The notes under the pieces: generated by a model
Told to the model about the DNA's origin: nothing
What the model saw: the letters and a program-made list of their open reading frames with translations, nothing else
The model's database searches: none
Shown: positions 6,866 through 64,000 of the stretch, in pieces
How positions within the stretch are numbered: the first letter of the stretch is position 1
Layout: the number at the start of each line of letters is the position of its first letter
Origin: Escherichia phage vB_EcoS_HASG4
Length of the DNA stretch: 64,000 nucleotides
Direction: 5' to 3' (one strand)
Sequence record: NC_100331.1
Translations under genes and position numbers: made by a program

Positions 6866-6871
6866 TTAAAT

Positions 6872-9042: not shown

Positions 9043-9052
9043 TATAAATGTA

Positions 9053-9110: not shown

Positions 9111-9112
9111 AA

Positions 9113-44054: not shown

Positions 44055-44073
44055 TTATTTTTCCCAATAAAAA

Positions 44074-44093: not shown

Positions 44094-44113
44094 TATCGGC
44101 TGAAAAGCCTGTA

Positions 44114-45490: not shown

Positions 45491-45507
45491 TTTTAAATAA
45501 TTCTCCG

Positions 45508-46140: not shown

Positions 46141-46143
46141 TTA

Positions 46144-46638: not shown

Positions 46639-46640
46639 TC

Positions 46641-47387: not shown

Positions 47388-47657
47388 TTAGGTCGTACAT
47401 TTAAGAGAGTGTCTAGAGTCTTTGTCTTGATGCCATTGGCATACGTGACAATATTATATTTATCTCCGACAGTATAAGAACACTCCGCCGCACTATCTAT
47501 AACCATATTAGCAGTTCTATTGAGAATCTCAATCTTGCTATAGGCTTGTCCAGTGGTAAAAAGGCTTACGGTTAGTGCGATGACTAACTGGTTCCATGTC
47601 TCTTATAATACGTTGACCCGGATTTAAACTTTTCAGTAATCCAGCTTTTTAAACCCA

Positions 47658-48110: not shown

Positions 48111-48759
48111 AGCTACTTAGAAAGATTACTATATCCTCAGGAGCAACATTAAAAAATTCCGTGCTTCCTGTAAAATTAGAAAACCCACAGTTTTTATTAT
48201 AATATTCTCTGTGAACTTCCTTTTCTAAATCTAAAGCAGTCTCTCTATCTGGCAGATGATACATGGTGAACAAGTGTAGGTCAGAAAATCCAGATTCTCT
48301 TTTAACTTCATTCAGCCGTTTCTCAGGGTATAAGCTTATGCCTACTTTAGTACCACTAGAGGAGGACATGATATAGAGGAATCCGCCATTCTCCCACTTA
48401 AGAGAACAATAAGGACATCTCTTACCTTGAGTCAATCCATCTAAGGTAATGAAACAGTCATGCCCATTATTGCAGCGTAGATGTAGTTTTGTTTTAGCAT
48501 TAGTATAGCTGCTTAACAGAGTATACCCTATATTAGATATTCTGTTACTAACTTCATCTAACGATATTGTATTATTGGAGCAGTGTGGACAACCTCTCCT
48601 CATATGGAGTATAGAATGTGGTGTTGCTTCCCAAACGTGTGCTCTCTGGCATTTAAATACTGTTTTTGTACGTTGGTTTACATATTCACCGACAATTTGG
48701 ATTCCACGATCAGCTAATCTAATATTTATATCTTTTATTGTTAGCTTTTGTCGACCCAT
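48085..48759 (-). CDS. T5orf172-domain (GIY-YIG-like) protein with N-terminal zinc-finger-like region
   Basis: GGFLYIMSSSSGTKVGISLYPEKRL...GSTEFF matches the T5orf172 pattern; N-terminal CPHCS; AGGAG SD. Confidence 0.6.
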   Translation of the reverse strand: MGRQKLTIKDINIRLADRGIQIVGEYVNQRTKTVFKCQRAHVWEATPHSILHMRRGCPHCSNNTISLDEVSNRISNIGYTLLSSYTNAKTKLHLRCNNGHDCFITLDGLTQGKRCPYCSLKWENGGFLYIMSSSSGTKVGISLYPEKRLNEVKRESGFSDLHLFTMYHLPDRETALDLEKEVHREYYNKNCGFSNFTGSTEFFNVAPEDIVIFLSSFGLEDYGH

Positions 48760-48930
48760 AGAATCTCCTACACCTCATGTAGAGCATTAATTTTTCTTGT
48801 TTACGTTCTATTATGGGAGAAGTTCTCCCGATCAATGAATATAGTATACATAATCGTATCGAATTTGTAAAGGGGATTTTAAAATGCAGGAATGGGATAC
48901 CAACTGAGTAGTATCCCATCCTATACTTAT

Positions 48931-50247
48931 TTATTTACCACGGGAAATAGAGTAAATTCCATAGCGCAGCGCATCACAAAGGTGAGAGTTAGCATCATGA
49001 CGTGGTTTTTCACGCGATAATTTCTCTTCACCTTCTTGGAAGTCCCACTTATAGTTCTGCAATGCATGAATTAAGGAGGAACATGAGGCATCCACAATAA
49101 TCTTACCCTGCTGGAATAACGCTTGCAAGCATGCTAGACCATCTAGGACAGATTTTTTAGCTGGAGCCGATGCAATTTCATGCTCATAAGCTAAGTCCTG
49201 GCGGAACTGAGCTGCTGCAGAGTCAACAAAAATACGATCAACTTTATAACGATCTATACAATGCTGAATATAAGCAGCATGCTGAGCTGTAGTTTTCTCC
49301 GCCTGCTGGTATTCTTCTAATACATAGTAAGTATCCGTATCGTAATGATATTTAATAGTAAGAACTGCTGTAGGGTCACGATAACCAACGTCAATACCAA
49401 GCAACGTTTCGAATGCTTCATCATCTTTAAAGAAGTGACGCATACCTTTGAGGTCTTTAACATGATCGATAGCATTAAAGGTATCAAAGATCTGGCCTTC
49501 GAATACAGAGAAGTCAGCCTCGTATTCCTGGCGGAAGTAGTTTTTACTAACTGTACGACGTGCTTCCTCAATGTCATTCAGATCAGCACGAGGATTATCA
49601 CGGTATGTACCATGAATAGACACCCAGTTAGGCAACGTATCATCAAATCCGTAGGCGTAAAACTCTTTAAACCAGTTACCTCCACGAGGTGTGGAAATAA
49701 ATAGAGCTTTAGAATTAGGTTTATCTAGAGTAGGACGCAGCTGAACCCTAAAAGCATCACCACCCACATCGGAAATTGCCGCCTCGTCAAAGATGATAAA
49801 ATCATACGAACGTCCAACTGCGGAGTCAGCCTGAGCCGCGGAAGCTAGTTTAAATAGAGAACCATTAGCTAACTCAATCTCTTTATCTTTAGCGTTTTCA
49901 CGTTCGGTTTGTAGACCATACTTCTTAATAAGACCACGAATCTGAGACCATCCGATATTGGCCAGTGAGTAGTTAGGGGCAACTACTAGTACCTTCACAT
50001 TAGGTTCCAGCAATTTTAGGAACCCAAGTGTATACGCTATAAAAGATTTACCTACACGACGTGATACACACGCCGTTACAAAACGATGTCTAGGGTCTTC
50101 TAGGGCATTGATAATTGCTATTTGAGGGCCGTTAGGTGTAATACCCTCTTGTGCTAATATTCCAGAAACAGGTAGACGGAAGAAACGTTTGTCTATTCCG
50201 AAATCAATAACATCTACTGTATTAACATAGGGTCTTGATACTTCCAT
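48931..50247 (-). CDS. terminase large subunit
   Basis: Walker A VSRRVGKS, Walker B DFIIFDEAA, C-terminal RNaseH-like nuclease region; 438 aa. Confidence 0.85.
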   Translation of the reverse strand: MEVSRPYVNTVDVIDFGIDKRFFRLPVSGILAQEGITPNGPQIAIINALEDPRHRFVTACVSRRVGKSFIAYTLGFLKLLEPNVKVLVVAPNYSLANIGWSQIRGLIKKYGLQTERENAKDKEIELANGSLFKLASAAQADSAVGRSYDFIIFDEAAISDVGGDAFRVQLRPTLDKPNSKALFISTPRGGNWFKEFYAYGFDDTLPNWVSIHGTYRDNPRADLNDIEEARRTVSKNYFRQEYEADFSVFEGQIFDTFNAIDHVKDLKGMRHFFKDDEAFETLLGIDVGYRDPTAVLTIKYHYDTDTYYVLEEYQQAEKTTAQHAAYIQHCIDRYKVDRIFVDSAAAQFRQDLAYEHEIASAPAKKSVLDGLACLQALFQQGKIIVDASCSSLIHALQNYKWDFQEGEEKLSREKPRHDANSHLCDALRYGIYSISRGK

Positions 50248-50729
50248 TACTTTTTACCTCCAGTAGCTAGGGAAGTAATTAAGTCCATGTAGTTTTGGTC
50301 CCCAGCTCCAGCAATAATGTTATTCTGGATATTGGTCTGATTAGCAGGAGCACGGACAGCAGCTTTAGCTTTTTCTAACTCCACCATCATCTTCATCTCT
50401 TCCATCTTCATCTTGTGTGCTTTCCAGAGAATATCCATAATATCCTGGTCAGAACCCATGCCAGTTTCTTCTAGCTCCTCTAGTTTACGTTTAATAACTT
50501 CATCTAGAACACCGAACAAACGATCTCTGTTACGGAATCCACTCTCCATAAAAATATCATTTAAGTAGTTCTTAACTTCACTACGATTCATAATATCTCG
50601 GAAAGCAATTTCGGACATTCCAAGACTACGTGCGGCAGAAGGCACATCACTGCCACACTGTAAATAAGCTTCAATCACATCCATCCCTTCAGGGGACATA
50701 AGATCTGGTACTAAAACATCATTTGCCAT
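50247..50729 (-). CDS. putative terminase small subunit / DNA-binding protein
   Basis: 160-aa ORF immediately upstream of and overlapping the large terminase start; HTH-like [20 protein letters not shown]. Confidence 0.4.
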
Positions 50730-50739
50730 ATTTCCTCCT

Positions 50740-52500
50740 TTAGGTAAGGCGTTGAACTGTTACTCGTAGTCTCGGTAAGAAAACTGCTGAACCTAAACTA
50801 ACGTGTAGTATAACACCTAATTCTGCATTACCATTACCAAGATTTTTTATTGTATATATAAAACTGTTTCTACTAAAAGCTCCGCTATCTGGGGTATATT
50901 TATAAGCAGAGGTAGTATGGAAAGGTACTAACTTTCCGGGAGGAAGAACTAAAATTTGATGAAATATAGCATCTCCTCCTGTATAACTTTGTGATTTTCT
51001 TCCTTGCACCTGAAAAACACTACCATTCCACGTATTTACTGGTAACCCAGCAACATTAAGGTTACCCGATAATATTTCACTAGTTAATATAACAGTAGAG
51101 TTATTATTTGGCAGACCTAATCCAACTGTTGCTAGGGGTTTATAAACATTACCCGTGCCTGGGTATGTCGGAGTAATATCGTTACCAATATAGGCGCTAG
51201 CCACATTACCAGATAATAGGCGTAAAGGTACTGATGAAGGTCCCCAGACAACACCATTCTCATTACCAATAGTATTATTATTAGAGTTTACATACCAAGT
51301 TTTACTAGCAGAGAACTTATAAATACTAAGTTGTGCTCTTGTACCACTATAGTTGACGGGTGCCCAGATAGATCCTTTATTGGAACATACAAATTCACAT
51401 CTTCCAGTAGTATCCCCAAACACCCCACCATGAGCAGCGTTTACTCCAATATACTCCATATCAGCACGAGAAGTTAGATTTCCTAAAGCATTCTGGTTAA
51501 TAAACTTCCAACCAGTAGTAGATAACTTAACCCCCTTAATAGTAAAGTTGGACGGAGAAATTATTATATCAGAACCCGTGAAAGGGTTACTAGAAACAGA
51601 CATACCACCGTTAGAATACCTTAGGTTCAGTACATACCATATAACTTTTGTAGGTGTTACTCCGTAGCCATCTTGAACTATTTTTGTATTAGCTGATTGA
51701 CTTACTAACTTAGTAGTAGAGCCTCTACAAACATATCTATACCCCCCATCACTAAAGTGCTGTACTATATTGCTAGGAATTGTTTGTTTGTATCCAGCAT
51801 ATCCCCTAATGTTAGAATTACATACATAAAACCAGTTATGGCCACGTTTACCAGCCCCCATTGGAGCCATCCAGTTAGGATCCCAATAGTACGTATCACC
51901 TGAAGATATAGGAACAGAAGTACTTCCTATAGGATACCCTAGTTGTTTGAAGGTTTCAGCTACAGTAGCACCTACAGGTGCACCACCCCCTGGTCTTACA
52001 ACACCATGGTAAGTACTATGTAGTACAGTACCACCTGTACCACTCCTAGCTATAGATTCTTCATGCCCTAGGGAACTATTATAGGAATAAGTACCTGAAG
52101 CTAGACTATTACCAAAAGCAAATCCAGCAGTTTGACTTAAACTAGCAAATGATCTAAAAGGGTCGGCCTGGGTGGAGGAAAGAAATTGCCCAACTTGAGA
52201 TTGAGTACCATTCAAAAAACCACGATGAGTACCATTAACTTCTATAGCTGTTAGTATAACCCTACCAGGATCATTGCTCTTTAGGTTAGCTATTACAGAA
52301 GGCATTTGGCATACAAAGAACCCATTACCCGCATTACTTAATGCACTCTCATAAGTGCTTTCTACTAATACGAAGGGCATATCAGAATGAAAAATAGTAT
52401 TAGTACTAGGGTTTTTATGAGCATTAATATCTCCACCACTAGCAGTATTTAGTGATAATACAGTTTTACCATCACTATATTTTCCAGCGAAAAAACCCAT
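50740..52500 (-). CDS. receptor-binding tail protein (pb5-like)
   Basis: 586-aa ORF divergent from the llp-like lipoprotein gene, the T5-type RBP/Llp arrangement as I recall it. Confidence 0.5.
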
Positions 52501-52525
52501 ATAATCTCCTATTATAAAAATGTAT

Positions 52526-52585
52526 TTGCTTTTATCTCTCTATTTTGCTATAATAGACTCATAAATTAGAAATGGAGAGATAAAT
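52526..52585 (+). promoter_or_regulatory. strong promoter for the lipoprotein gene (T5-like family)
   Basis: TTGCTT-N17-TGcTATAAT (52549-52554), then AGACTCATAAATTAGAAATGGAGAG. Confidence 0.5.
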
Positions 52586-52852
52586 ATGAAAAAGTTTGTG
52601 ATTGCACTAGTTGCCGCAGTTATGTTATCTGGTTGTGCACCAGCCCCCAAACCATTTTGTACGGGGTTTGTAAAATCTTTTGGTGGTGCGGGAGAGGAAC
52701 ATTACGGCCTCAAGGTTCAAAAAGTTCGTATTAAGGGAGATCGCTTTCCAGTAGTACAGCTCCGTACTAAATTTGGGTGGTGGGATCTCAGTCAGTTTGA
52801 TCTTAAATATGGTGATTGTAAATTTAAACTAGAGCAATCTAATTACCTGTAA
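52586..52852 (+). CDS. llp: lipoprotein, Llp-like (receptor-blocking superinfection exclusion)
   Basis: Signal peptide plus lipobox MKKFVIALVAAVMLSGC; small size; adjacent and divergent to the RBP gene. Confidence 0.6.
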   Translation: MKKFVIALVAAVMLSGCAPAPKPFCTGFVKSFGGAGEEHYGLKVQKVRIKGDRFPVVQLRTKFGWWDLSQFDLKYGDCKFKLEQSNYL

Positions 52853-53028
52853 TTAGTATAAAGCAAAAAGACATCCAAGTAAACTAAATTTTTTATTTCT
52901 TGGATGGTGTACTGGCAGAAACCACTATATGAGAAAAGTTGAAGTCCTTCTAGGAGTTCACAGGCACGGTTGGTTGTGCACAAATTACAGAATATTTCAA
53001 ATACCACATTTATAGGAGCATGAAAGAT

Positions 53029-53157
53029 ATGTCAAACAAAAGAAAGAGCAGACGTGGAGAAGTGTATGAGAGTTGGATAAATAGTTTTGGGTTCGGAACT
53101 ATCCTATTCTTTATTTTCGTAGGCTTTTGGTTAGCAGCTATGGCGGGGTGGATTTAA
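53029..53157 (+). CDS. small membrane protein 1 (42 aa)
   Basis: TAGGAG SD 10 nt upstream; basic N-terminus then one hydrophobic helix; stop overlaps next start (TAATG). Confidence 0.35.
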   Translation: MSNKRKSRRGEVYESWINSFGFGTILFFIFVGFWLAAMAGWI

Positions 53158-53264
53158 TGGAATGGGTAATTATTGCACTACTAGGGATTGTGATTATTGG
53201 GCAATGTATTTTAGATAATCACTTAGCTAGAATTGAGACCTTATTATTGGAGAAACGTAAATGA
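53157..53264 (+). CDS. small membrane protein 2 (35 aa)
   Basis: One hydrophobic helix (MEWVIIALLGIVIIG); overlapping stop/start with both neighbours. Confidence 0.3.
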   Translation: MEWVIIALLGIVIIGQCILDNHLARIETLLLEKRK

Positions 53265-53455
53265 TGGAAGTGGCAGCTACACTAATAGTAATACTAGTCT
53301 GGGCAATTTTCATTGTTTCTTATACCGCGTATGTTCGCCTAAAAACTCTAGAGGCCCAGGTAAAGCAGCAACAATTTGCTATAGAAAAATTAGTAGAACT
53401 GCAACGTTGTGATAGTACCCGTATTCTGCAAATTGAGAGGGAATTAGATGTTTAG
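53261..53455 (+). CDS. small membrane protein 3 (64 aa)
   Basis: N-terminal TM helix then coiled-coil-like tail; overlaps neighbours. Confidence 0.35.
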   Translation: MMEVAATLIVILVWAIFIVSYTAYVRLKTLEAQVKQQQFAIEKLVELQRCDSTRILQIERELDV

Positions 53456-53693
53456 TATTATAATTGCTTTTATTATCGGGATACTCGCGGGAGTTTTCGG
53501 AATGACTGCGGCAATCAATAAGCATCGTAAATATATTGCGGAAGTATCGCGGGAGATTGCGGAAAGGGAGCGGAAGTTTGACGAGAAACGTGCGGAGTTT
53601 GAGCGGGAGTGGTCGGATGGTTCTCGGGCGTCGCGGAAGAGGTTTCGTGAGTTCAGACCAGAACACAGGTTTGATGACCCTTCTATGCGCTAA
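53448..53693 (+). CDS. small membrane protein 4 (81 aa)
   Basis: N-terminal TM helix then highly charged Arg/Glu-rich tail (REIAERERKFDEKRAEFEREW). Confidence 0.35.
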   Translation: MFSIIIAFIIGILAGVFGMTAAINKHRKYIAEVSREIAERERKFDEKRAEFEREWSDGSRASRKRFREFRPEHRFDDPSMR

Positions 53694-53858
53694 TTGGGAA
53701 ATCTCGAAATTTCATAAGATTACACATGGAGGTGTGCTCACTGCCTCCGGCGGAAATACTTAGTCTGCTAACCGCCACCCTCCGTTACTATTACCATGCT
53801 AACTGTTTCACCCTGCAACCATTTTAATTGCAAGGTGAAACAATTTCAACTTTAATTG

Positions 53859-54593
53859 TTAGGCAACTTTTAATTTCTCAATATATTGTTGCGGGCTGCA
53901 ACTATATTCTGCGCGTTCTTCCTCGGTCATACTTTCCCAACATAATTGCAGGCGGTCGGCTAGAAATTGATAATCATTATCATCCTCAAGAGATTCATCA
54001 ATAAAGGTTTCACCTATCAATGTAACCCCAATCGATAGAATATCGTTAATAGCTTGCGCGTCCAGCGTTTTAAATCCGTATGATGCCGCCGCTGATAGTA
54101 CGCCTTTATGATCATCAATCATCGTAAAATCAGCGTTAGGATATAACTGTTTAAATAGCTCAAAATAATGGCTTTTATAAATAGCGTCTTTACTGTGGTA
54201 TATTTCGCTAACTTTATCAGCTTCAAAATATTTGTGTAGTGTATCGCGGGAAAACACGCGGATATTGCTTTTATCACGACCGCGCAAGCCTTGTTTGCGC
54301 AAGAAATAATAATCCGACTTGCTCATCAATCGAGCGGTGCAAATAATGTTTAACGTGTTAACGTCATTCATGCACTGGCGCATATATGTAACAAGCGGCA
54401 ATAGTGTATCTTGCATTATTAAATCATGTTTGCAGGCTTCATTTTTATACTTATTTAAATCTAAATTGCCCTCACTATCAAAGCAAGGCGCTACACGATG
54501 GAAAGAGTTAATGATAGTGCCATCCAGATCCCAAATCATGACGCGGGAAATATGTGGGAAGCTGCGGGAAATATTCATAATAGCTTTATTCAT
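53859..54593 (-). CDS. dmp: HAD-family 5'-deoxyribonucleotidase (dmp-like)
   Basis: N-terminal MIWDLDGTIINS carries HAD motif I DxDGT; 244 aa, the size I recall for T5 Dmp. Confidence 0.6.
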   Translation of the reverse strand: MNKAIMNISRSFPHISRVMIWDLDGTIINSFHRVAPCFDSEGNLDLNKYKNEACKHDLIMQDTLLPLVTYMRQCMNDVNTLNIICTARLMSKSDYYFLRKQGLRGRDKSNIRVFSRDTLHKYFEADKVSEIYHSKDAIYKSHYFELFKQLYPNADFTMIDDHKGVLSAAASYGFKTLDAQAINDILSIGVTLIGETFIDESLEDDNDYQFLADRLQLCWESMTEEERAEYSCSPQQYIEKLKVA

Positions 54594-54672
54594 TTGTTAC
54601 GTTCTCCATTAAAGGGATTAGATTAATTCAGCATTACCCGCTATTTATAAGCGGGTAATAATAAATTAACTA

Positions 54673-55068
54673 TTAAAGACCATAAGCCAACGCATCAGCG
54701 ATAAAACTAACATCCTCACCGGATACGCTGGAACGAATCCCGGCACAAGTATATACCTTTGCGCTGATCAATTGATCATCGAGGCAAGCGGGGCAAGGCG
54801 CAACCACTGCGAAAGCTAAACCGGATTTTACCGCGTCAATAATAATTGTTTCCTGCTTCATCGTGTCAACATAAACACCTTTTGCTTTAATATGGCTGGT
54901 TAGTTTACCTTGCATATATGCAAACGTTGTAACTTGCATTGCATCATTGAAATCTAACAATTCATCAATAACGTGCCCCGCCTCGACGTGGTAACGTTCA
55001 CCATTAGAATAAACCAGAACAATGGAAGACTGAGCGCGGTCAAATGGAATGCGATTAGATTTAGCCAT
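54673..55068 (-). CDS. hypothetical protein
   Basis: Intact ORF with the conserved leader upstream; contains HVE and PCPAC but with non-canonical spacing. Confidence 0.4.
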   Translation of the reverse strand: MAKSNRIPFDRAQSSIVLVYSNGERYHVEAGHVIDELLDFNDAMQVTTFAYMQGKLTSHIKAKGVYVDTMKQETIIIDAVKSGLAFAVVAPCPACLDDQLISAKVYTCAGIRSSVSGEDVSFIADALAYGL

Positions 55069-55105
55069 GTTTATAACTCCAGTTAGTTTAATAAGGGGGT
55101 TTAAT

Positions 55106-55363
55106 TTACTTGATAATAATCTGCATTTGATATGGCGTTAATTCACCATTTACGGGTAAATTATTATCACTCAACCACTCATAAAAAGCGTCATCATCGT
55201 CAAAGGGAACAATATCATTATCACGATAATCGACCGTAATAATCCCATCTGTATTAGTTTTGGCGGCTAGGATAGGTCCGAAGCTGTAAACTTTATCGGA
55301 TTCCATTTCATCCGGTGAAATAAATGCTTTTTCGTCCAGCGTTTTGGGTAATGTAACTTTCAT
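55106..55363 (-). CDS. hypothetical acidic protein
   Basis: 85-aa ORF, Asp-rich. Confidence 0.35.
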   Translation of the reverse strand: MKVTLPKTLDEKAFISPDEMESDKVYSFGPILAAKTNTDGIITVDYRDNDIVPFDDDDAFYEWLSDNNLPVNGELTPYQMQIIIK

Positions 55364-55420
55364 TCTAATTTAGCTCCTGTAATAGCGGCTATATTTCAAG
55401 CCGCTAGGGGAATAATTTAA

Positions 55421-57085
55421 TTACGCGAAAAATTTACCATTCTTAAAGTCAATCAAGGTGCGCTGACCGTTTGCATAGGTAATAACATGCGTTTGTGTCC
55501 AGCTTGACGCGCCAACGTTATAACCCATGTCCAGACTACCAGACACGCCAGCGGTGTATACGCCGCCGTAAATACTGGCGGTATGAGTGTGCCCCGTGTT
55601 TAATTTGCCCAATTTCTTAAACTGTTTCGGATTGCCACGGCTGCCGTTTATGCCGTTGTGACCGTGTACGCCGCATTCAATGCCTGCAATCTTGAAAGAT
55701 TGATCAGTGGTCAGAAAAATAGCGTTAAACTCACAACCTGCAACCTTACGCAGCGCATAATCTAGCACGTTGAAAGTATCGTCTTTTTCTGCAATAGCTC
55801 CATAAATCGCAGCATTAAGGCGGTGATATAGTTCCGCGTTTGCTGGGTCGTCTTTAATGTTAGCATTACGATCATCCAGCCAACGGGATAGCGCCAAATC
55901 GTGGTTTGATTCAACAATGATCGTTTGAGCAAAATCGCGCTCCATCGATTCCAGCACGCGCCCGGTATCGATAAGATCATCCAGAACTTTATCACGTCCG
56001 GCGGCGTATTGTTTCGCTAGGAATACACCGGAGGCACGATTATGATGATTGCGTGATGTAAAATCATGCACGTCATGGACGAATTGATATTTTGGCTTGA
56101 GAATATCAAGCAAGCTATTTTCCCCAGCCCATGATGCAACGGCGCAAGCGTCATCCAATTTTTCGGCGTGGACGTCGCCATATTGTAAACCTAAAACGTG
56201 CCCCGATGTTTCATAGCATCCGGCGGGAGTAGCGCAAACATTCAGATCATAAAATACGCCGCTTTCATCCATCGTTTCAAGCTGGCGAACAAAAAATTCT
56301 CCGTCTTCGTCGAACTCGACAATAAGCGCACCGAAGTTATGCAGCGCCTCGGCCTTTTGTCCTGCTTTCTGCTGGATGTAGTTTTTTAACGTTGCCGTTC
56401 CGGTTGAATACATACGGCGCACAATTTCACCTTTTAAAGCTGGCACGCTTTCAGCGGTAATTTTAGCCGCTCCGATTGCCAGACCTTCGAGATTAAGCGC
56501 GGTTGCAGTTTCAGCGAATCCAGAAAGCGGATAATCTGCGGTGGGCAAAACATTAATTTCAGCCATGAAAGCAAAACGGCGATTGTTTAAAAATACGTTT
56601 TTGCTGCAAATATATTTATCAAACGCAGAATCATATTTGATTCCGTCTGCCCCTTCCCCATTTTGAAAACCGTTTTTATTATAAATATACTTAGAAACAA
56701 GCAAATCAGCGCCAATAAATTGGGCATATTGTTCAAGCGAGGCTAAAAAGTTTTTATGCGGGAAAGTATTATTCTGAATCGATGTAATAATAAAGCGTTT
56801 GCCTTGTTTTACTTCCCATTGCTCCACCGTGCTAGAAATAACTCCAGCGGCTTCAGGGCGGTCATCGTTTTTTATGGCTTTTGCTGTTTTTGCCGCTTTT
56901 GGTTTCGCTGGTTTATTTGCTTCCAACCAGTCGCAGATAGCGGTCGAGTGTTTTGTAGTATCGTATACCGCTTTTGATATATCGTCGCAGACTTCCAGTT
57001 TAGTAGCGCGCAGACGTTTACCATAGAAATTAAAGTCAGCGGCAAGGTTGAGAATCTGGGCTTGTTTTTCTGCGGAAATAATCAT
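55421..57085 (-). CDS. A1: A1-like pre-early protein, calcineurin-like metallophosphoesterase
   Basis: Phosphoesterase-type motifs GDVH, SNHD, GHTHT; 554 aa, close to what I recall for T5 A1; conserved leader upstream. Confidence 0.6.
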   Translation of the reverse strand: MIISAEKQAQILNLAADFNFYGKRLRATKLEVCDDISKAVYDTTKHSTAICDWLEANKPAKPKAAKTAKAIKNDDRPEAAGVISSTVEQWEVKQGKRFIITSIQNNTFPHKNFLASLEQYAQFIGADLLVSKYIYNKNGFQNGEGADGIKYDSAFDKYICSKNVFLNNRRFAFMAEINVLPTADYPLSGFAETATALNLEGLAIGAAKITAESVPALKGEIVRRMYSTGTATLKNYIQQKAGQKAEALHNFGALIVEFDEDGEFFVRQLETMDESGVFYDLNVCATPAGCYETSGHVLGLQYGDVHAEKLDDACAVASWAGENSLLDILKPKYQFVHDVHDFTSRNHHNRASGVFLAKQYAAGRDKVLDDLIDTGRVLESMERDFAQTIIVESNHDLALSRWLDDRNANIKDDPANAELYHRLNAAIYGAIAEKDDTFNVLDYALRKVAGCEFNAIFLTTDQSFKIAGIECGVHGHNGINGSRGNPKQFKKLGKLNTGHTHTASIYGGVYTAGVSGSLDMGYNVGASSWTQTHVITYANGQRTLIDFKNGKFFA

Positions 57086-57183
57086 GGTAATAAAACTCCA
57101 TTAAAGGGATTAAAAAACGTTTGTTATTGGCAAATATTGCCAAATATAACGCCTATTATTTGAGGCGTTATAATTTGCAATAT

Positions 57184-57399
57184 TTAACTAATCGGCATCA
57201 GGCTAGAACTAACACCACAAGCAACGGCGGCAATAAAACAAATAAGACCTAAACGCTTTGCTAACTTAGATTTACGTTTAAAATAATATGAATCCAGATC
57301 ATTTTGGAAATAAGCAAACAATAACGAGGCCGCTACAATAAATAATCCTAGAATGAGGGATTCAGTAGGGTAAAAGATCATTTTAATAACTCCAGTCAA
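57184..57399 (-). CDS. small membrane protein (two hydrophobic segments)
   Basis: 71-aa ORF between the A2-like and A1-like genes. Confidence 0.35.
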   Translation of the reverse strand: MTGVIKMIFYPTESLILGLFIVAASLLFAYFQNDLDSYYFKRKSKLAKRLGLICFIAAVACGVSSSLMPIS

Positions 57400-57437
57400 A
57401 GGAAATTATAGTGGGGAGTATTCCCCACTAATTAAAT

Positions 57438-57845
57438 TTATTCACCTGCGGCCTGTTTTACTTCATCGGCAACGCCCAATAGTTGCGCCACGGCGTCCAA
57501 CGTTTCTAATTTTGCGCTTTCCAGTGATGCCAGATCGTCAACGTCTTTGATAATACCGGAATCGATGGCATGTTTTGCAATAACGCGCACATAATGCGCT
57601 TTGCGGATAGAACTGCCGCCGCCAACCTTGCGAGGTTTATCGCTTTTCTGATACGCTTTCGCGCTGGTCAATTTTGAGCGAACGGACACGGGAGAAGCCG
57701 CACCTACTGCTTTCGCGATCTCTTTCAAGCCGTCGCTATTTGCGAAATCTAAACCGTTTTCATTGATTAGCTGCTGATACATGGTAACAGCCTGCTGGGT
57801 GTTTTCTTCATTCCAAGAAAATTTTACGGTTTTAACGTTAGTCAT
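57438..57845 (-). CDS. A2: A2-like pre-early protein
   Basis: 135-aa ORF immediately upstream of the A1-like gene; size and position match T5 A2 as I recall it. Confidence 0.45.
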   Translation of the reverse strand: MTNVKTVKFSWNEENTQQAVTMYQQLINENGLDFANSDGLKEIAKAVGAASPVSVRSKLTSAKAYQKSDKPRKVGGGSSIRKAHYVRVIAKHAIDSGIIKDVDDLASLESAKLETLDAVAQLLGVADEVKQAAGE

Positions 57846-57943
57846 GGTAAAAACTCCTATTAGTTTAATTTAAGGGATAAGATTAACATAATGTTAATCG
57901 TTATATACCCCGAACTACTGGGGTATATAAAGTTAACACTAAA

Positions 57944-58195
57944 TTACAAAACAGCTTCCCATTTTTCGTTGCGTTGAACAACCTTTACAACATCGCCGGA
58001 TTTAACGCGAACGCTAAAAACGGTTTTGCCGTTGTTACTGCGTTCCGTTTCAGCGTATACCGCGTCGATTGTATCGAACGGCATAAGCGCCGCACCTTTA
58101 ATGCGTTCGGCCTTTCCGGTTAACTCATCCGTTTTAGTAACGAAAGGAATAAAAACGGATTGACCAATTTTTGGCGCGGTAATAACGTTTTGCAT
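57944..58195 (-). CDS. hypothetical protein
   Basis: 83-aa ORF with the conserved leader and AGGAG SD. Confidence 0.4.
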   Translation of the reverse strand: MQNVITAPKIGQSVFIPFVTKTDELTGKAERIKGAALMPFDTIDAVYAETERSNNGKTVFSVRVKSGDVVKVVQRNEKWEAVL

Positions 58196-58422
58196 AGTAT
58201 AAACTCCTAGTTATTTGGGGATTATTCCGCATTACCTGCTAGAAGGTAGCAGGTAATAAGTAACAATCCGCTCGCCAGTTTAACCAATTTAAAGAACTCC
58301 ACGTAGGCCGCTATATCCCAGTTAGGGGGCGGGATGCATTATGGTAAGCACCGACCGTCAAATTTTATCAAGTTATCGCTCTTATCGAACTGAGTACATC
58401 TTAAAACCTATCGGCTAGGTTG

Positions 58423-58626
58423 TCAAACGGTTTTTTGCAATTTTTTATGATTTTCTTTCAAGTCAATCATAATATTTCGCCAGATCATTTCTAGACCTTG
58501 CTGGCGACCTCTCTTGTACTGCGTGAATCGGTATTTTACCGATCTTTGCGCTACTGTCAACAAATTTTTTGTTTTGCTATCTAGTGCCTTAATAGGCTTG
58601 CCAGTGATCAATAAAGTTTGTTTCAT
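58423..58626 (-). CDS. hypothetical small basic protein (uncertain)
   Basis: 67-aa ORF inside the large intergenic region; weak SD. Confidence 0.2.
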   Translation of the reverse strand: MKQTLLITGKPIKALDSKTKNLLTVAQRSVKYRFTQYKRGRQQGLEMIWRNIMIDLKENHKKLQKTV

Positions 58627-59256
58627 ATCGTCGATTCCTTATAATAGATAAGTTTACCGCCGATAGGCTTTAAGATGTACCCAATTTTTAAAGAGCGTGG
58701 CGGTAAACTTCCCGCCGTGTAGTTCGTCATTGCCGCCCTACGTGATAAATAATAGGGGATTCCCGAAAATGGCGCAACCTTATTTTTGTAAAGAAACGTA
58801 AAGACAAAATTCACCGGACGGCGTGCGGTGACGGCCTAAAATTAAAAGAAACGGGCGCGCGAATACCACAAAACAAAGCAAATAGGCAAGTAATTTTTTC
58901 ATTTATATTTGCTTTCCCCTACTTGACAAAATCTAAAAAGCTCGTGGTAGCGATAAACGGCTTATCCCCTTATGATGGGATGGCTAAAAACTTTATTGCG
59001 TTCTAGGGCGTTTTAGGCGGCTCATTTTCGATTTAACAAATATCTAACAAAAGCAAAATTGAAAAATAGTTGAAAAAGGTCTTGACTTTTAAAAATCAAG
59101 GGGCATTGCATTAATTTATAAAATAAATTAATTGACTTTTATTTGTTGTTGTGTATTAGAAAGATAGCAAACTAATAATTACTAGAATGATAATCATGCT
59201 GGTGGATTGTAACGGCTTAAATTATTAGCAGACTACTAATCCCGGAAAATCTCATT

Positions 59257-59310
59257 AGCCAACTAACTGTTTCATAAGTTATAATATACATATAAATTAA
59301 TGAGAAATAA
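59257..59310 (+). promoter_or_regulatory. promoter-like element of the T5 family (weak -35)
   Basis: GTTATAAT with TATAAT at 59280-59285, then ATACATATAAATTAATGAGAAA. Confidence 0.35.
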
Positions 59311-59419
59311 TAATTATAAGAAAACGTAACCGATAGGAATAATAACTATAAAAATAATCACTACTATAATAATAACTATAAGAAACTATCGGCCTAAGTG
59401 AGAACCACTATCATTTAAG

Positions 59420-59440
59420 TTATCCACAAAGTTATCCACA
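59420..59440 (+). promoter_or_regulatory. two perfect DnaA boxes (TTATCCACA) in direct repeat
   Basis: TTATCCACA at 59420-59428 and 59432-59440, just downstream of an AT-rich repeat tract. Confidence 0.6.
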
Positions 59441-59794
59441 GCACTTTTTGACTTGACACGATATGCGGCGATACAAGGACTTTTGCTCAGACTTACCCAC
59501 AGGTTATCCTACTGTATAAATATACAAGGTAAAAAGATAGTGTTAACAACTGCAATCAATTTTAAGCGGCCTAAATCGCTTTCTAACGAGCAAAACGCTG
59601 TAGGGTAATATTAAAGTAAAGCCTCAACGTGTCGGCCTGGTGGCTTCGCCGTGTTTTGCTCTTTACTATACCGCTGCGCGGTTAGCATAAAAATAAGCGT
59701 TAGGCAAGGAAAATAAAAAGGTAAAATAATATTTGCCCCTAGAAAGAAAATACCTTTATCATTCACTCACCGATTAACGAGGGAGGCCGAACAA

Positions 59795-60787
59795 ATGAGG
59801 CTTTATAAACCAGATAACGCAACCGTCTTAAAAGGTGCATTGCGCAACCTGCTGGATGGTAGCAGAACAACCAGCATTAAACATTTTGTTTTCAATATTG
59901 AAACACTTCATCGTAATTTTCTTGATGATTACGATGCTTATAATATGAATAGTTTTCTACCGTTATATAATCAAGGGGCAACGCTTGTTTTATATAATCA
60001 GGAATCTCACTTGCTTACTAGTCGAGGGCCAGATACTGATTTTATTATAGTGAAAGGCAGTACAGTAAAAGCCTATGATGCGGGGGCGGGCTTAGAAGTT
60101 TTCACGATAGAAAATTATGAGCCTTATGATAAGGATCTTTATGACGTAGAAAATTTTCTCGATTCATTTTGGCGTTATTTATCAATTGGGTGGAATCGGT
60201 CGGATTATGACGGGTATCGTTTTGCGGCTGTAATGGCTTTTGATGATAACGGTAATTTTTTGTTACCGTCGGAATTATACCCGTATGTATATAATGATTT
60301 AATAGAGGAGGCTGGTTTTACTTTCTGGAAAGATGAAGATCAGCCTATTGACAATATAGAAAACCATGCTGTAAATTCTAACACTCAAAGCGTTAACACT
60401 CAAACTACTGAAAACAAAGGAAAAAATACCATGACCAAGATCGCTAATATCGTTGCCGCTAATAAATCCGCTGTTGTAAATGCTGCAAAACTGGAAGCGG
60501 GTAAAATTGCACTGACTCAAATCACGAAAGTAGCGGCTAAAAAAGCGCCGTTTATGATTAAAGGTTATATTGATACGCCGATTGGTCGTGTAGTGATCGC
60601 TAACCTATTGAGTGTAGCGGTTGACCAGTACGCCCCAACTAACCAAAAGGCAAAAGCGGTAGCAGGCGCGGCTATGGAAGCGGCAATGCTGGAAATGGTG
60701 CAAAGTTTTAACATCGCTGAAATGATTGATGAAATGGTAAAAGGTATCGATATTTCTACTTTTACCACTAACACCGAAAGCGAGTAA
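59795..60787 (+). CDS. hypothetical protein
   Basis: 330-aa ORF with GAGG SD; first gene of a rightward cluster. Confidence 0.45.
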   Translation: MRLYKPDNATVLKGALRNLLDGSRTTSIKHFVFNIETLHRNFLDDYDAYNMNSFLPLYNQGATLVLYNQESHLLTSRGPDTDFIIVKGSTVKAYDAGAGLEVFTIENYEPYDKDLYDVENFLDSFWRYLSIGWNRSDYDGYRFAAVMAFDDNGNFLLPSELYPYVYNDLIEEAGFTFWKDEDQPIDNIENHAVNSNTQSVNTQTTENKGKNTMTKIANIVAANKSAVVNAAKLEAGKIALTQITKVAAKKAPFMIKGYIDTPIGRVVIANLLSVAVDQYAPTNQKAKAVAGAAMEAAMLEMVQSFNIAEMIDEMVKGIDISTFTTNTESE

Positions 60788-60852
60788 TAATATTTAGCGG
60801 GGATTATTTCCCCGCTTTACTATTCCCTTGTTAACTAATAGGAGGCTAACTA

Positions 60853-61347
60853 ATGGCTGAGGAAAAATACGGCTTCTCGCTAGGGGAAGTGAGCACGGCT
60901 AAACACGATATGATCATTTTAGTTGATTGTCATACTGGCTATTGCGGGGAAGGGAACACCGAAGAATATTTTGTTCCTGCTGGTACGGATCTGGACGCTT
61001 TAGCTCACGAAATGGCTATGGATAATGCTTCTCGTTTTGGCAGCGATGGCTATGAAGACGAGGATACTGGCGAATGGTATGAAAATGAAAACGTATACGC
61101 AAGTCTTTATCATTATCAGTTAAGTAAATCCGGCACATATGTAAATGGCGGCGATCCTATTAATTCCGTTGTGAAATTAATTATTAAATATGGTGGCGTC
61201 GAGATAATTGATAACAAAGCGGTAATATATGCAAACCGATTAAAACAGCTTGTTTATATTCCTGATAATACCCGATGGGAGGAATACGCTGTTTTGCATG
61301 ACGAATTGAAACGATGTTTCAATATTGAAGCCCTACAAGTAGTCTAA
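60853..61347 (+). CDS. hypothetical acidic protein
   Basis: 164-aa ORF with AGGAGG SD; Asp/Glu-rich. Confidence 0.45.
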   Translation: MAEEKYGFSLGEVSTAKHDMIILVDCHTGYCGEGNTEEYFVPAGTDLDALAHEMAMDNASRFGSDGYEDEDTGEWYENENVYASLYHYQLSKSGTYVNGGDPINSVVKLIIKYGGVEIIDNKAVIYANRLKQLVYIPDNTRWEEYAVLHDELKRCFNIEALQVV

Positions 61348-61452
61348 TGTAAAGTTTTGTAAAGGTCGCCTTTTATGGTGGCCTTTTTTGTTATAATGCC
61401 TTTACACCAAAACGGTGGATTGAAAATTTTCCCAAAAATTTGGAGGCTTAAA

Positions 61453-61683
61453 ATGGTTGCATACTCTTCTGCTAGTCATCTGTTTACCGCGCAAGGCTGG
61501 GTATCTAATCGCGTCATTATTCATGAAATGGTGCAGGAGTTCGGCATTGCTAAAACGTATAATACCATTCAGGAACTATATAACGCCGATAAAATCGATC
61601 AGCAAACGGCTGGCTTTTTGCTGGATACCCTGAAAGCTGAACATTGCACTAAAAAGCAAGCTGCAAAAATTGTCTTAATGTAA
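61453..61683 (+). CDS. hypothetical protein
   Basis: Internal ATG at 61453 with GGAGG SD; the track's 61375 start lacks an SD. Confidence 0.4.
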   Translation: MVAYSSASHLFTAQGWVSNRVIIHEMVQEFGIAKTYNTIQELYNADKIDQQTAGFLLDTLKAEHCTKKQAAKIVLM

Positions 61684-61736
61684 TTAATAACGGGGGGGGG
61701 GTATTATATCCCCCGATAACTAGGAGGCTATCACAA

Positions 61737-61886
61737 ATGGTTATTTTTCGAGCTATTTTAGCGGGTATCTTGGGCGCTATTTTATCGTTATTTGCAATAG
61801 CTTTCGGTGTTCACGCCGTTATTATCGGCGCGGGTATCGCCGCATTTTCTTATCTGCTGGGCTGCATGACTAGTAAAGGAGAATAA
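61737..61886 (+). CDS. small membrane protein (49 aa)
   Basis: TAGGAGG SD 9 nt upstream; two hydrophobic segments; preceded by a G10 tract. Confidence 0.4.
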   Translation: MVIFRAILAGILGAILSLFAIAFGVHAVIIGAGIAAFSYLLGCMTSKGE

Positions 61887-61888
61887 AA

Positions 61889-62101
61889 ATGATTCGTAAC
61901 GTTTCCCTTGCACGTTCGAAAGGCTTTAGGCTGGTGGACGTTAACACGTTCGAGCGTGAAGATTGTAAAATCGAATATGTAGCACGTAACAAAAATGCCT
62001 TTCGTGTTACTGAGAAAAAATTCGACAAGCGCGGCAACGTGATCGCTGAAACAGTTAAACATTTTGCCACCTTTTATGCTGCGTTTCGTGGGGTATTATA
62101 A
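61889..62101 (+). CDS. hypothetical protein
   Basis: 70-aa ORF with GGAG SD, immediately after the previous stop. Confidence 0.4.
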   Translation: MIRNVSLARSKGFRLVDVNTFEREDCKIEYVARNKNAFRVTEKKFDKRGNVIAETVKHFATFYAAFRGVL

Positions 62102-62102
62102 A

Positions 62103-62447
62103 ATGGTTATTTATGAAGGCAACCGCTTTGTTACTAATTGCCGTCCGGCATTACTAGCAAACTACTTAAATCAGCTTTCCCCAGCTTATAAGGGCGTTAT
62201 TAATATTTATGAGGGCAAGGCGCATTATAAAATCAATGCGGTCGTTGCCCGTGAACTAGCGTTTCAATTTTTGACCTTTGCATCTTGTGACGTTCAGGTC
62301 ATGGGTGAGGCATTAATTGCAGAAAATGAAGATGATTTTATTAATATTTTCCGCAAGATATGCACCGAGCGCCTGATCATGAAAGGCGCTTATATTCAAT
62401 CCACTGCGGATAGTATTGAAACAGCGTTTCGAAAGGTGGCACAATGA
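62103..62447 (+). CDS. hypothetical protein
   Basis: ATG at 62103 directly after the upstream stop; 114 aa. Confidence 0.4.
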   Translation: MVIYEGNRFVTNCRPALLANYLNQLSPAYKGVINIYEGKAHYKINAVVARELAFQFLTFASCDVQVMGEALIAENEDDFINIFRKICTERLIMKGAYIQSTADSIETAFRKVAQ

Positions 62448-62602
62448 AAAAGTTTTTAATAGCTGGTATGTTTCCTTTGTTGCCTTATGTAATTTGCTGG
62501 GCTTTATATGCTCATGGTGCTAGTGTTCCCGGTGTGGCTTCATTTGGTGTATCGGCTGGTTTTCTAACCGGACTATTGGCAAGCGTATATTTACGCAAAT
62601 AA
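62444..62602 (+). CDS. small membrane protein (52 aa)
   Basis: ATG overlapping the upstream stop; two hydrophobic segments. Confidence 0.35.
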   Translation: MKKFLIAGMFPLLPYVICWALYAHGASVPGVASFGVSAGFLTGLLASVYLRK

Positions 62603-62620
62603 TTAATAACGGGAGTTATT

Positions 62621-62824
62621 ATGAGCAATAAAATTATTGTAACCAAAATCAGTACAATGGTTGATGTTTTTTACGTGCCCGATACGCCGGAGAATCGGCA
62701 AGCGGTTGAGCGTGGCGAGTATGATAAAGTGATTTATGATCACGATGGTTATTATCAGCATTTGGCGGATTCCTACGGGGAGGAGGAAAAAATCACGCAT
62801 CGACTACCGGAGGAGGATTTATGA
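62621..62824 (+). CDS. hypothetical protein
   Basis: 67-aa ORF with GGGAG SD. Confidence 0.4.
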   Translation: MSNKIIVTKISTMVDVFYVPDTPENRQAVERGEYDKVIYDHDGYYQHLADSYGEEEKITHRLPEEDL

Positions 62825-62925
62825 AACGATGGTTTAATCACTGGTATAAACGGTTTTTAGTACGCCGTCGCAAGTCTAGGCATCAAGATGAGTGGAGGGA
62901 GTGGGCAAAGCGTAACGGTTGCCCA
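62821..62925 (+). CDS. hypothetical small basic protein (uncertain)
   Basis: 34-aa Arg/Trp-rich ORF overlapping the previous stop. Confidence 0.2.
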
Positions 62926-62975
62926 CTACTATAATAATCACGGGGCGCAACTAGTAAGAAGTGCCCCCAATTCTC

Positions 62976-62996
62976 AAATGAGAATCATTCTCATTT
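62976..62996. repeat. perfect 21-bp palindrome AAATGAGAATCATTCTCATTT
   Basis: Read directly; the two 10-bp arms are exact reverse complements around a central C. Confidence 0.8.
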
Positions 62997-63190
62997 GACC
63001 GCGCCCGCGATGATTAGCCTGCTAATGGTTAGGGTGTTACGTGTCGCCTTGTGTGATCGTTAGCGTGCTAACTAATTTTCAAGCCTCCTCCAATTTTCCC
63101 CTTGTTTTAGTATCCCCGCCAAAATTAAACGCGTTAGAATGCGATTCAGGACGTTTTAAGCCTATATTAGAATTATTCACTGCATAGGAA

Positions 63191-63210
63191 TACTGTATAT
63201 TTATACAGTA
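63191..63210. promoter_or_regulatory. LexA-box-like palindrome TACTGTATATTTATACAGTA
   Basis: Fits CTGT-N8-ACAG with an all-AT spacer; one mismatch to TACTGTATATATATACAGTA. Confidence 0.5.
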
Positions 63211-63222
63211 GAATAACCTGGG

Positions 63223-63301
63223 GATAAGTCTGTGGATAACGCTTCAAAATGGCTAGGGTTCTGTCAAGTCAAATCGTGCTGTTGATAAGTCTGTGGATAA
63301 C
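63223..63301. repeat. exact 18-bp direct repeat GATAAGTCTGTGGATAAC x2, each with a DnaA box (TGTGGATAA)
   Basis: Copies at 63223-63240 and 63284-63301. Confidence 0.75.
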
Positions 63302-63332
63302 TTAAATAACAGTGTTTCTCACTTCCGTTTTT

Positions 63333-63500
63333 AAATGCGAATCATTATCATTCGCATTTCACTAGCTAACCGATAATCACTCCACTTTTTAAATGAGAAT
63401 CATTTCACTTCTTGAATAGTTCTCATTCCCTTTCTTAAATGCAAATCATTATCATTCGCATTTCACTTTTTAAATGAGATTGATTCTCATTATCATTCGC
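63333..63500. repeat. cluster of palindromes built from AAATG(C/A)GAAT half-sites
   Basis: AAATGCGAATCATTATCATTCGCATTT (63333-63359), AAATGAGAA...TTCTCATT (63391-63427), AAATGCAAATCATTATCATTCGCATTT (63437-63463), AAATGAGATTGATTCTCATT (63472-63491). Confidence 0.75.
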
Positions 63501-63533
63501 ATTCAGGCGAGCAAGGCAATTGCCCTGCGCTTT

Positions 63534-63757
63534 TGTGCAAATCCGACATTTGCCCCCATGGATTACGCGTGGGCATGTATGTGCGAATCCGACAATTTTT
63601 GGTAGTGTGCAAATCCGACCCGAAAAATTTTTATAGTGTGCGAATCCGACAATGAATTTTCCTAAAAACTCCAGCAATCACGAACTGCGTTCGAATCCTG
63701 TGGAATTAGCTAGAGTATGTGCAAATCCGACATGTGTTGAGCTGTGCGAATCCGACA
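63534..63757. repeat. six direct 15-bp iterons TGTGC(G/A)AATCCGAC(A/C)
   Basis: Copies start at 63534, 63580, 63606, 63637, 63718, 63743; spacings 46, 26, 31, 81, 25 bp; a degenerate copy (CGTTCGAATCC) near 63690. Confidence 0.8.
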
Positions 63758-64000
63758 AGATTTTTGTGACTTCGATTGGAGGGTGTGTGATTGTATAGGT
63801 TTGAGGAGAAGATGAGAGAGCGAGAGAAATTTTGGGACTAGAAGGATGTGGGCGCAAGATTGGTGCGGAGCACCTGATTTGCGGGGATTTTGGGGGAGAG
63901 TTGAGATAATTTGGGAAGATTTGAGATAGGTGCAGAAAAAGTAAAATTTTATTAGCTAAATGGAGCAAAATAGCTTGACAAGTGAAAATTCTTGTGGCTC

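Follow-up and report, generated by a model that had tools for sequence, protein, structure and literature searches.

The two tandem DnaA boxes close to the right end of the window (the whole stretch of DNA that was analysed, 64 kb in length) belong to a 131-nt module that is almost certainly the same element as the inverted repeat C–spacer–inverted repeat D of phage T5. As judged from sequence comparisons, its function is best read as that of a conserved, dispensable binding module, probably for DnaA, on the DNA that is injected first, and the module is very probably not a replication origin. The original prediction had described the AT-rich tract and the boxes as resembling a DnaA-dependent unwinding element. 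This reading was left unsupported, as the tract is hypervariable, no oriC-type motifs were retrieved, and T5 stays viable with a deletion across the homologous module. Paired DnaA boxes are on record for this element (Heusterspreute 1987; Wang 2005, in the annotation of AY587007; Davison 2020). Because the boxes in the T5 terminal repeat were described earlier, the DnaA-box feature is already known in T5 and its relatives.

Genomic location of the module

The window corresponds to the right 64 kb of a T5-like phage related to Escherichia phage vB_EcoS_EASG3 (Tequintavirus). Positions 44000–64000 were 98.4% identical to the last 20 kb of EASG3, and the final base of the window is the right end of the EASG3 genome, which places the boxes and the AT tract in the right terminal repeat. 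A second, identical copy of the module is expected approximately 5.6 kb from the left end of the genome. The region was matched by 443 phage records, essentially all of them T5-like, and several of these place the match at approximately 5.2–6.1 kb inside 'left terminal repeat'. With the whole arrangement repeated in both terminal repeats, the genome carries four copies of the module. The 131 nt are 100% identical between the window and EASG3; the segment 300 nt to the left of the module has been replaced in the window, which is thus mosaic with respect to EASG3.

The proposed location in a divergent intergenic region was borne out: A1 and A2 run leftward, and the homologue of T5 pre-early gene 011 and a set of small ORFs run rightward (Table 1). 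A2 marks the leftward pre-early operon, and the gene-011 homologue is the first gene of a rightward cluster that is flanked by the two modules.

Table 1. Positions in the window of the modules, their internal sites, the AT-rich tract, and the flanking pre-early genes
Feature	Position	Strand	Basis or remark
A1 ('DNA transfer protein')	55421–57085	− (leftward)	PHROGs
A2, DNA-binding protein, second-step transfer	57438–57845	−	PHROG 1725 'DNA binding protein', E=4.7e-51; T5 annotation
Promoter-like TAGCCA-18-TATAAT (inferred)	59256–59285	+	Consensus scan 10/12; inside the conserved left anchor of the tract
AT-rich minisatellite, ~16-nt units (roughly 31-nt double units), AATAATAAYTATAAGAAA type	59300–59390	.	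Copies from 59306, 59338, 59368
Left module, T5 'inverted repeat C – spacer – inverted repeat D' (Repeat Region 2)	59396–59526	+	Inverted repeat and homology
DnaA-box pair 1, TTATCCACA-AAG-TTATCCACA, both perfect	59420–59428, 59432–59440	+	
TTGACTTGACA with TTGACA core, centre of spacer	59448–59458	+	Mean information 1.94 of 2 bits
DnaA-box pair 2, degenerate, TTTTGCTCA-GAC-TTACCCACA, then overlapping fifth half-box TTATCCTAC	59481–59512	+	
LexA-box-like TACTGTATAAATATACAAGG, degenerate (ACAA for ACAG)	59510–59529	.	Palindrome at outer end of left module
T5 pre-early gene 011 homologue	59795–60787	+	ORF list; PHROG 4263; 5' sequence is that of the T5 011 CDS in the supplement
Near-consensus LexA (SOS) box TACTGTATATTTATACAGTA, T5 'palindrome D'	63191–63210	.	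Outer end of right module
Partner module, T5 IRD'-spacer-IRC'	63194–63324	−	Beside the injection-stop-signal repeats

Identity with the T5 element

The left module aligned with T5 (AY587007, approximately 6022–6152) at 77.9% identity over 131 nt (E=1e-22), and the partner module aligned with T5 at about 9332–9463 at 93.9% identity. The first of these stretches is labelled repeat_region in the T5 record, where the two stretches appear as inverted repeats C, D, D', and C'; the repeats and the major nick of the injection stop signal lie just to the right of the D'/C' pair. The two elements were named IRC-spacer-IRD (Repeat Region 2) and IRD'-spacer-IRC' (Repeat Region 3) in a preprint by Davison (bioRxiv 10.1101/866236), which reported a total of eight DnaA boxes, arranged as 3-bp-spaced pairs, across the two elements in 25 T5-like phages and traced the first observation of the boxes to a 1987 paper (Heusterspreute 1987).

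Within the window, the left and partner modules form inverted arms (59396–59458 with 63262–63324, and 59481–59526 with 63194–63239) that are 87% complementary and approximately 3.7 kb apart. The boxes of the partner module start at 63292 (TTATCCACA), 63280 (TTATCAACA), 63231 (TTATCCACA), and 63219 (TTATCCCCA), and repeats of the DRC and DRD types follow at 63319–63756. The features by which a T5-type IRC-spacer-IRD element is recognized (location in the terminal repeat, homology, an inverted partner, and box pairs spaced by 3 bp) were all found.

The module was retrieved from 531 GenBank phage records and, in the comparisons with GenBank, E. coli genomes, and plasmids, occurred only in T5-like phages. 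No match was obtained when the module was searched by BLAST in 5,426 complete E. coli genomes and 72,556 plasmids; by this search, neither a host origin nor a plasmid origin was its source. The T5 element is reportedly also described in Davison 2015.

DnaA boxes and internal layout

The two perfect boxes of the original prediction were found as described, in the same orientation and 12 bp apart from start to start, which leaves a gap of 3 bp. The box motifs are real and non-random, and to call them DnaA boxes is reasonable. Perfect TTATCCACA boxes occur four times in the 64-kb window, at 59420/59432 (+) and 63231/63292 (−), compared with 0.64 expected from dinucleotide-preserving shuffles, and none of 100 shuffles reached four. 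One-mismatch boxes were not enriched across the whole window (22 vs 19.5 expected).

From its left end, the module consists of a flank of 24 nt (AAGTGAGAAnCACTnTCATTTAAG), boxes 1 and 2 joined by a linker of 3 nt, the spacer, boxes 3 and 4 with a linker of the same length, the overlapping half-box, and a palindrome (TACTGTATAAATATACAG). The boxes of pair 2 start at 59481 and 59493, which gives a pair-to-pair distance of 61 bp, and the relatives mostly carry TTTTACACA or TTATCCACA followed by TTATCCACA at these positions. The TTGACA in the spacer resembles a −35 hexamer and is essentially invariant in all 60 modules aligned (5/6 columns invariant). No −10-like hexamer was found 16–18 bp from it on either module, and a simple sigma-70 promoter was therefore rejected.

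A scan of IMG/VR for the paired-box pattern TTATCCACANNNTTATNNACA retrieved at least 120 stretches, mostly on contigs unrelated to T5, and was set aside as uninformative; with 16 specified bases, tens of chance matches would be expected in IMG/VR by a rough estimate.

Conservation across T5-like phages

Using A2 as the probe, 40 IMG/VR loci were retrieved; among them were 29 distinct T5-like contigs in which the module region was usable. Both modules were present in 29/29 of these contigs. The resulting alignment of 60 modules (30 left and 30 right) was essentially gap-free, with identical box spacing and a fixed pair-to-pair distance in 60/60, and box 1 was TTATCCACA in 47 of the 60.

The pooled matrix of 240 boxes, which come from related phages and are not independent observations, read T238 T240 A215/T25 T233 N C170/A65 A221 C232 A231. 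Positions 1, 2, 4, 8, and 9 were near-invariant, position 3 was A or T only, and position 5 was free. The variation across the 30 phages, TT(A/T)TN(C/A)ACA, is the Schaper–Messer consensus TT(A/T)TNCACA with an extra tolerance of C to A at position 6. In the left modules, linker 1 carried 0.68 bits per column, the inner spacer approximately 1.3, and the boxes approximately 1.6–1.8, a pattern that would be predicted under selection for DnaA binding.

The flank, the TTGACA, and the palindrome were conserved at least as strongly as the boxes. The equal conservation of these parts indicates that the module does more than bind DnaA, and with the whole module conserved, the real ligand could be a phage protein or another host protein. 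The right module was more conserved than the left. The distance between the two modules varied from 1.6 to 4.1 kb among the phages, and the gene content between them differed.

The AT-rich tract

The tract had been described as almost pure A/T. It is AT-rich, at 79% A+T over 59281–59400, and it is interrupted by G/C-containing stretches. The repeated units were confirmed: ATAATAACTATAA occurs exactly twice (59339 and 59369), and a third copy (59307) differs from it at a single position. The A+T content reached 83% in the 120-nt segment from 59270, the highest in the 64-kb window, and only 0.06% of all 120-nt segments are as AT-rich. The tract is also the least stable 40-, 80-, and 120-nt duplex, with a nearest-neighbour dG of −121.6 compared with a mean of −153.4 (sd 7.5).

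The sequence of the left anchor of the tract is conserved in 24/29 relatives, including T5, and the promoter-like TAGCCA-18-TATAAT that it contains (Table 1) is unannotated in T5. For the window and the 24 contigs with the same anchor (CCAACTAAC), tract length was taken as the distance between this anchor and the module start. This distance was 34 nt in eight phages including T5, 65–66 nt in five, 82 nt in one, 96–98 nt in five, 128 nt in the window and three other phages, 159 nt in one, and 225 nt in one, so that the length changes in steps of approximately 16 or 31 nt. T5 and seven other phages have no repeat units. EASG3, the closest relative, carries an identical module and has a tract 30 nt shorter than that of the window, and five further phages have unrelated sequence at the position of the tract.

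By these comparisons, the AT tract is best described as a slippage-prone repeat of variable copy number. As it is hypervariable and its units are absent in T5, it is not a conserved unwinding element. No ORF of at least 30 aa was found between 58902 and 59453, and a search of 58000–64000 against Rfam at a permissive threshold retrieved no known RNA, with DapZ as the sole sub-threshold hit (25.5 vs 56 bits).

Dispensability of the left module in T5

A 2026 preprint reported a viable T5 'delta-L delta-R' mutant, verified by whole-genome sequencing, which includes a block deletion named 'hegG to 017'. The mutant formed smaller plaques, its burst size was not different from that of the wild type (p = 1.000), and its eclipse and latency delays were similar to those of the dmp deletion alone. 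The 'delta-hegG-17' primers listed in the supplement of the preprint mapped uniquely on AY587007, with arms at 5051–5392 and 9082–9418, where one primer carried three mismatches to the T5 strain sequence used. These arms correspond to a deleted block of approximately 5393–9081, which contains IRC-spacer-IRD (6022–6152). The location of the T5 left module inside the deletion is thus inferred from the primer mapping and is not stated by the authors. IRD'-spacer-IRC' (9332–9462) lies outside the deleted block and was kept in the mutant.

The viability of the deletion mutant indicates that T5, in laboratory culture, needs its counterpart of the left module neither for infection nor for two-step transfer or replication. 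This agrees with the natural 'Type 4' T5-like phages described by Davison, which are without IRC and IRD altogether.

Proposed role of the module

The explanation that we consider reasonably probable for the left-hand DnaA-box module and the adjoining AT minisatellite is an accessory nucleoprotein element. The 131-nt module would serve as a conserved cis-acting protein-binding platform made up of the flank, the box pair, the spacer, the second pair, and the LexA-like palindrome. Host DnaA would occupy the phased boxes while they lie on the 8% of the genome that is injected first, and both modules together would form an accessory nucleoprotein element of two-step DNA transfer and of the pre-early programme, in which the right-hand module would be the important copy and the left-hand module dispensable. 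Judging from the box sequences, actual binding of DnaA is somewhat better than an even prospect, and the degeneracy of pair 2 in this phage speaks against the explanation as a whole.

A role of the module in the injection stop or in transfer is tentative and rather doubtful. It was proposed by Davison that membrane-bound DnaA holds the entering DNA, and later papers repeat this as an idea. The left module, at approximately 5.6 kb, enters first without stopping transfer, and so the brake cannot consist of DnaA boxes alone.

The right-module palindrome provides a side observation that appears to be new, namely a LexA-type candidate site beside the stop signal. It matched TACTG(TA)5CAGTA at 19/20 positions and was the only match in the window, where none was expected. 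CTGT-N8-ACAG was retained in 28/30 right modules and 24/30 left modules. The Davison preprint makes no mention of LexA or SOS, and nothing relevant was found in the literature on a link between LexA and T5 or on tests of host dnaA dependence.

Fur-box-like cores, one of which matches the Fur-box 19-mer with three mismatches, were seen in the repeats that follow the partner module on its right and are given here as a lead only; the clearest matches to the Fur-box consensus lie outside the region of the boxes and the AT tract.

An extension of the same idea, to which we assign a low probability, is that the modules are composite landing pads for several host DNA-binding proteins (four to five phased DnaA boxes in each, a near-consensus LexA operator, the invariant −35-like TTGACA, and perhaps the Fur-box-like cores in the adjoining stop-signal repeats). 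If so, the first-injected DNA might be clamped, or second-step transfer might be timed by the replication or SOS state of the host, and the length of the AT minisatellite would act as a tunable spacer.

Alternative explanations

Control of transcription is an unlikely account, and it is the first to be weighed against the accessory nucleoprotein element. DnaA, together with LexA at the palindrome, would act between the divergent pre-early operons as a repressor, activator, or roadblock, and its target would be either the gene 011 promoter, which lies approximately 200 nt downstream, or transcription that reads through from the promoter-like site (59256–59285). The module does lie between the leftward and rightward pre-early units and upstream of gene 011, whose promoter P11 was experimentally validated in T5. 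The conserved TAGCCA-18-TATAAT upstream of the module, a leftward TTAACA-16-TATATT with its −10 inside the LexA-like box, and the invariant TTGACA of the spacer point in the same direction. Schaefer and Messer are said to have found in 1989 that DnaA-box complexes block transcription in an orientation-dependent manner, which would favour such control. However, the partner module is located downstream of the terminators of the cluster and not at a promoter, the promoter-like matches in the region barely exceeded those in shuffles (7 vs 3.8, sd 2.1), and the TTGACA is without a −10 at a usable distance. Furthermore, the pre-early shut-off of T5 has been ascribed to the action of A1 on RNA polymerase.

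Quite unlikely, too, is a reading of the modules as sites for a phage protein, in which dimeric A2, alone or with A1, would use both modules in the resumption of transfer or in cleavage, and the boxes would look like DnaA boxes by mimicry or by chance. Second-step transfer in T5 depends on the DNA-binding protein A2, whose gene lies 1.5 kb from the module; the direct repeats phased at 12 bp and the strongly conserved non-box parts fit a dedicated ligand, and the module is confined to T5-like phages. Against this, the positions that vary in the boxes are those tolerated by DnaA (A/T at position 3 and any base at position 5), which coincidence does not predict, and the left module is dispensable while A2 is essential. 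To our knowledge, no sequence specificity has been reported for A2, which likewise counts against this reading.

We regard as very unlikely that the modules are a DnaA sink or modulator similar to datA or DARS, by which the first-injected DNA would titrate or inactivate DnaA and stop new rounds of host replication. Each terminal repeat does carry eight boxes outside any origin, on the first DNA that enters the cell. The chromosome has approximately 300 DnaA boxes, and eight sites are few in comparison. No IHF consensus was found, though IHF is needed for datA-type hydrolysis. Host DNA is destroyed via A1 within minutes in T5 infection, which would make titration redundant.

A DnaA-dependent origin, in which DnaA at the tandem boxes would open the neighbouring AT tract for helicase loading, is highly improbable. 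In its favour, a distance of 20 bp separates two perfect, high-affinity boxes from the duplex of lowest stability in the window, and the partner module likewise abuts AT-rich repeats on the equivalent side. Tandem DnaA boxes beside AT-rich DNA are typical of plasmid origins (P1 oriR and F oriS). Of the features expected of an origin, however, the DnaA-box cluster was found (two perfect and two degenerate boxes), and a conserved 13-mer unwinding element and the accessory features were not. No oriC-type 13-mers (GATCTnTTnTTTT-like, with up to two mismatches) were present in the tract region, no GATC sites in 58900–59800 (0, vs 3.1 per kb across the window), and no IHF consensus in the region; neither a Rep gene nor iterons were found, the neighbouring ORFs being those of pre-early proteins. 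The AT repeat units, absent in T5 and seven other phages, form a tract that ranges from 34 to 225 nt in length. The boxes belong to one arm of a long inverted repeat whose partner is 3.7 kb away, and there are four module copies per genome. Moreover, on the strand where the boxes read TTATCCACA, the AT tract is on their 5' side, which is the opposite of the arrangement of R1 and the unwinding element in E. coli oriC. Burst size is normal in the T5 mutant whose deletion covers the homologue, and replication was also set aside by Davison, with the T5 origins mapped near mid-genome and the first-step DNA without replication genes.

GC skew was considered as evidence for an origin and rejected, as the cumulative turn near 52–59 kb follows the switch in gene orientation. 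For genome scanning, an AT-rich tract together with perfect DnaA boxes is insufficient to call an origin.

That the inverted modules are recombination anchors, which would bound the swapping of a small pre-early gene cassette and have no protein-binding role of their own, is equally improbable: the variable distance (1.6 to 4.1 kb) and gene content between the modules and the mosaic window (100% identity of the module to EASG3 with the segment 300 nt to its left replaced) would fit, but the fixed internal spacing, the variation shaped like the DnaA consensus, and the near-consensus LexA box are unexpected of pure linkers, and modules in inverted orientation would invert a cassette rather than exchange it.

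Comparison with known systems

The halt of T5 after injecting 8% of its genome and the subsequent restart have been a question since the 1960s, for which the DnaA-box modules are the main sequence clue. The present comparison sharpens this clue. The boxes vary in the way expected of DnaA sites; the left module and the AT tract are expendable, both in nature and in engineered T5; and the right module, with a strong LexA-type candidate operator beside it, is the better-conserved copy to target.

E. coli oriC, P1 oriR, F oriS, and pSC101 share with the module direct, helically phased TTATCCACA pairs beside the most easily melted DNA. Unlike these origins, the module of the window has no 13-mer, GATC, IHF site, initiator gene, or iterons, and its AT tract is unconserved; a module of this type is duplicated and inverted, shows no sequence homology to E. 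coli or plasmid DNA, and is dispensable in T5. The likeness to datA, DARS1/2, and the dnaA promoter is that of a DnaA-box cluster that probably binds DnaA without initiating replication, whereas the box arrangement differs, there is no IHF site, and the module is located on the first-injected DNA of a virulent phage. With LexA operators, the right-module palindrome agrees at 19/20 positions and CTGT-N8-ACAG is found in most phages; in contrast to them, no SOS-regulated gene is evident beside the palindrome, and the left copy is degenerate (ACAA).

The closest system is the T5 IRC-spacer-IRD itself, with the same terminal-repeat position between the A2-side genes and gene 011, the same length of 131 nt, an inverted partner beside the DRC/DRD repeats, box pairs with 3-bp gaps, and a fixed spacer. 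The window differs from T5 in that the HNH (hegG) insertion left of the module is absent, pair 1 consists of two perfect boxes (the T5 IRC is one box short), pair 2 is degenerate, and a three-step AT minisatellite is present that T5 lacks. The window adds nothing categorically new to the T5 element. What it adds, modestly, is the minisatellite nature of the tract, a matrix of box variation shaped as for DnaA, and a published deletion that is now tied to the dispensability of the module.

Conserved elements of the two modules

The right module, the inverted partner of the left module beside the injection stop signal, carries at its outer end a near-consensus LexA (SOS) box-like palindrome, TACTGTATATTTATACAGTA, which differs from TACTG(TA)5CAGTA by one mismatch and is the sole such site within the window. 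The CTGT-N8-ACAG pattern was kept in 28 of the 30 right modules and 24 of the 30 left modules aligned from T5-like phages. The T5 counterpart of TACTGTATATTTATACAGTA is 'palindrome D', and no mention of its LexA-like box was found in the searchable T5 literature.

The mid-spacer of both modules contains TTGACTTGACA, whose TTGACA core was essentially invariant (five of six columns invariant) in the 60 aligned modules. No -10 hexamer was found at promoter distance from the spacer TTGACA. TTGACTTGACA may serve to bind a ligand that is not productive RNA polymerase.

Coordinates of the elements within and around the two modules
Feature	Position	Location
GATC-free interval	58900-59800
Mosaic segment	59010-59120	just left of the AT-rich tract and DnaA boxes
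Promoter-like TAGCCA-18-TATAAT	59256-59285	conserved anchor
TTGACTTGACA	59448-59458	left module, mid-spacer
TTGACTTGACA	63262-63272	right module, mid-spacer
LexA-box-like element, degenerate copy	59510-59529	left module
LexA box-like TACTGTATATTTATACAGTA	63191-63210	right module, outer end
Stop-signal repeats with Fur box-like cores	63319-63503
Fur-box-like site, 3 mismatches to GATAATGATAATCATTATC	63476-63494	among stop-signal repeats
Closer match, 2 mismatches to GATAATGATAATCATTATC	53963-53981	near inner start of terminal repeat
Direct repeat D, six copies	63534-63756	between stop-signal repeats and genome end

Sequence to the left of the DnaA boxes

The window is mosaic here when compared with its closest relative, Escherichia phage vB_EcoS_EASG3. 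EASG3 and many relatives have extra DnaA-like boxes, an inverted pair around TTGACT (GTTATCCAC-TTGACT...-GTGGATAAC), whereas the window has a different sequence without these boxes; the two genomes are near-identical again from ~59120 rightward.

A promoter-like element falls within the anchor sequence conserved to the left of the minisatellite; T5 has it too, unannotated. If active, this putative promoter would direct transcription rightward across the AT tract and on through the DnaA boxes.

No GATC sites occur in the 900 bp at 58900-59800, compared with a window average of 3.1 per kb. This absence could be due to chance (P about 0.06); alternatively, Dam or restriction sites may be avoided in the non-coding DNA that is injected first.

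Repeats at the injection stop signal

The stop-signal repeats, whose cores resemble Fur boxes, correspond to the DRC and palE-I types of T5 (e.g., AAATGCGAATCATTATCATTCGCATTT and AAATGAGAATCATTCTCATTT). Beyond them, TGTGC(A/G)AATCCGAC recurs at irregular spacing; it is the 'direct repeat D' of T5, from which it is conserved.
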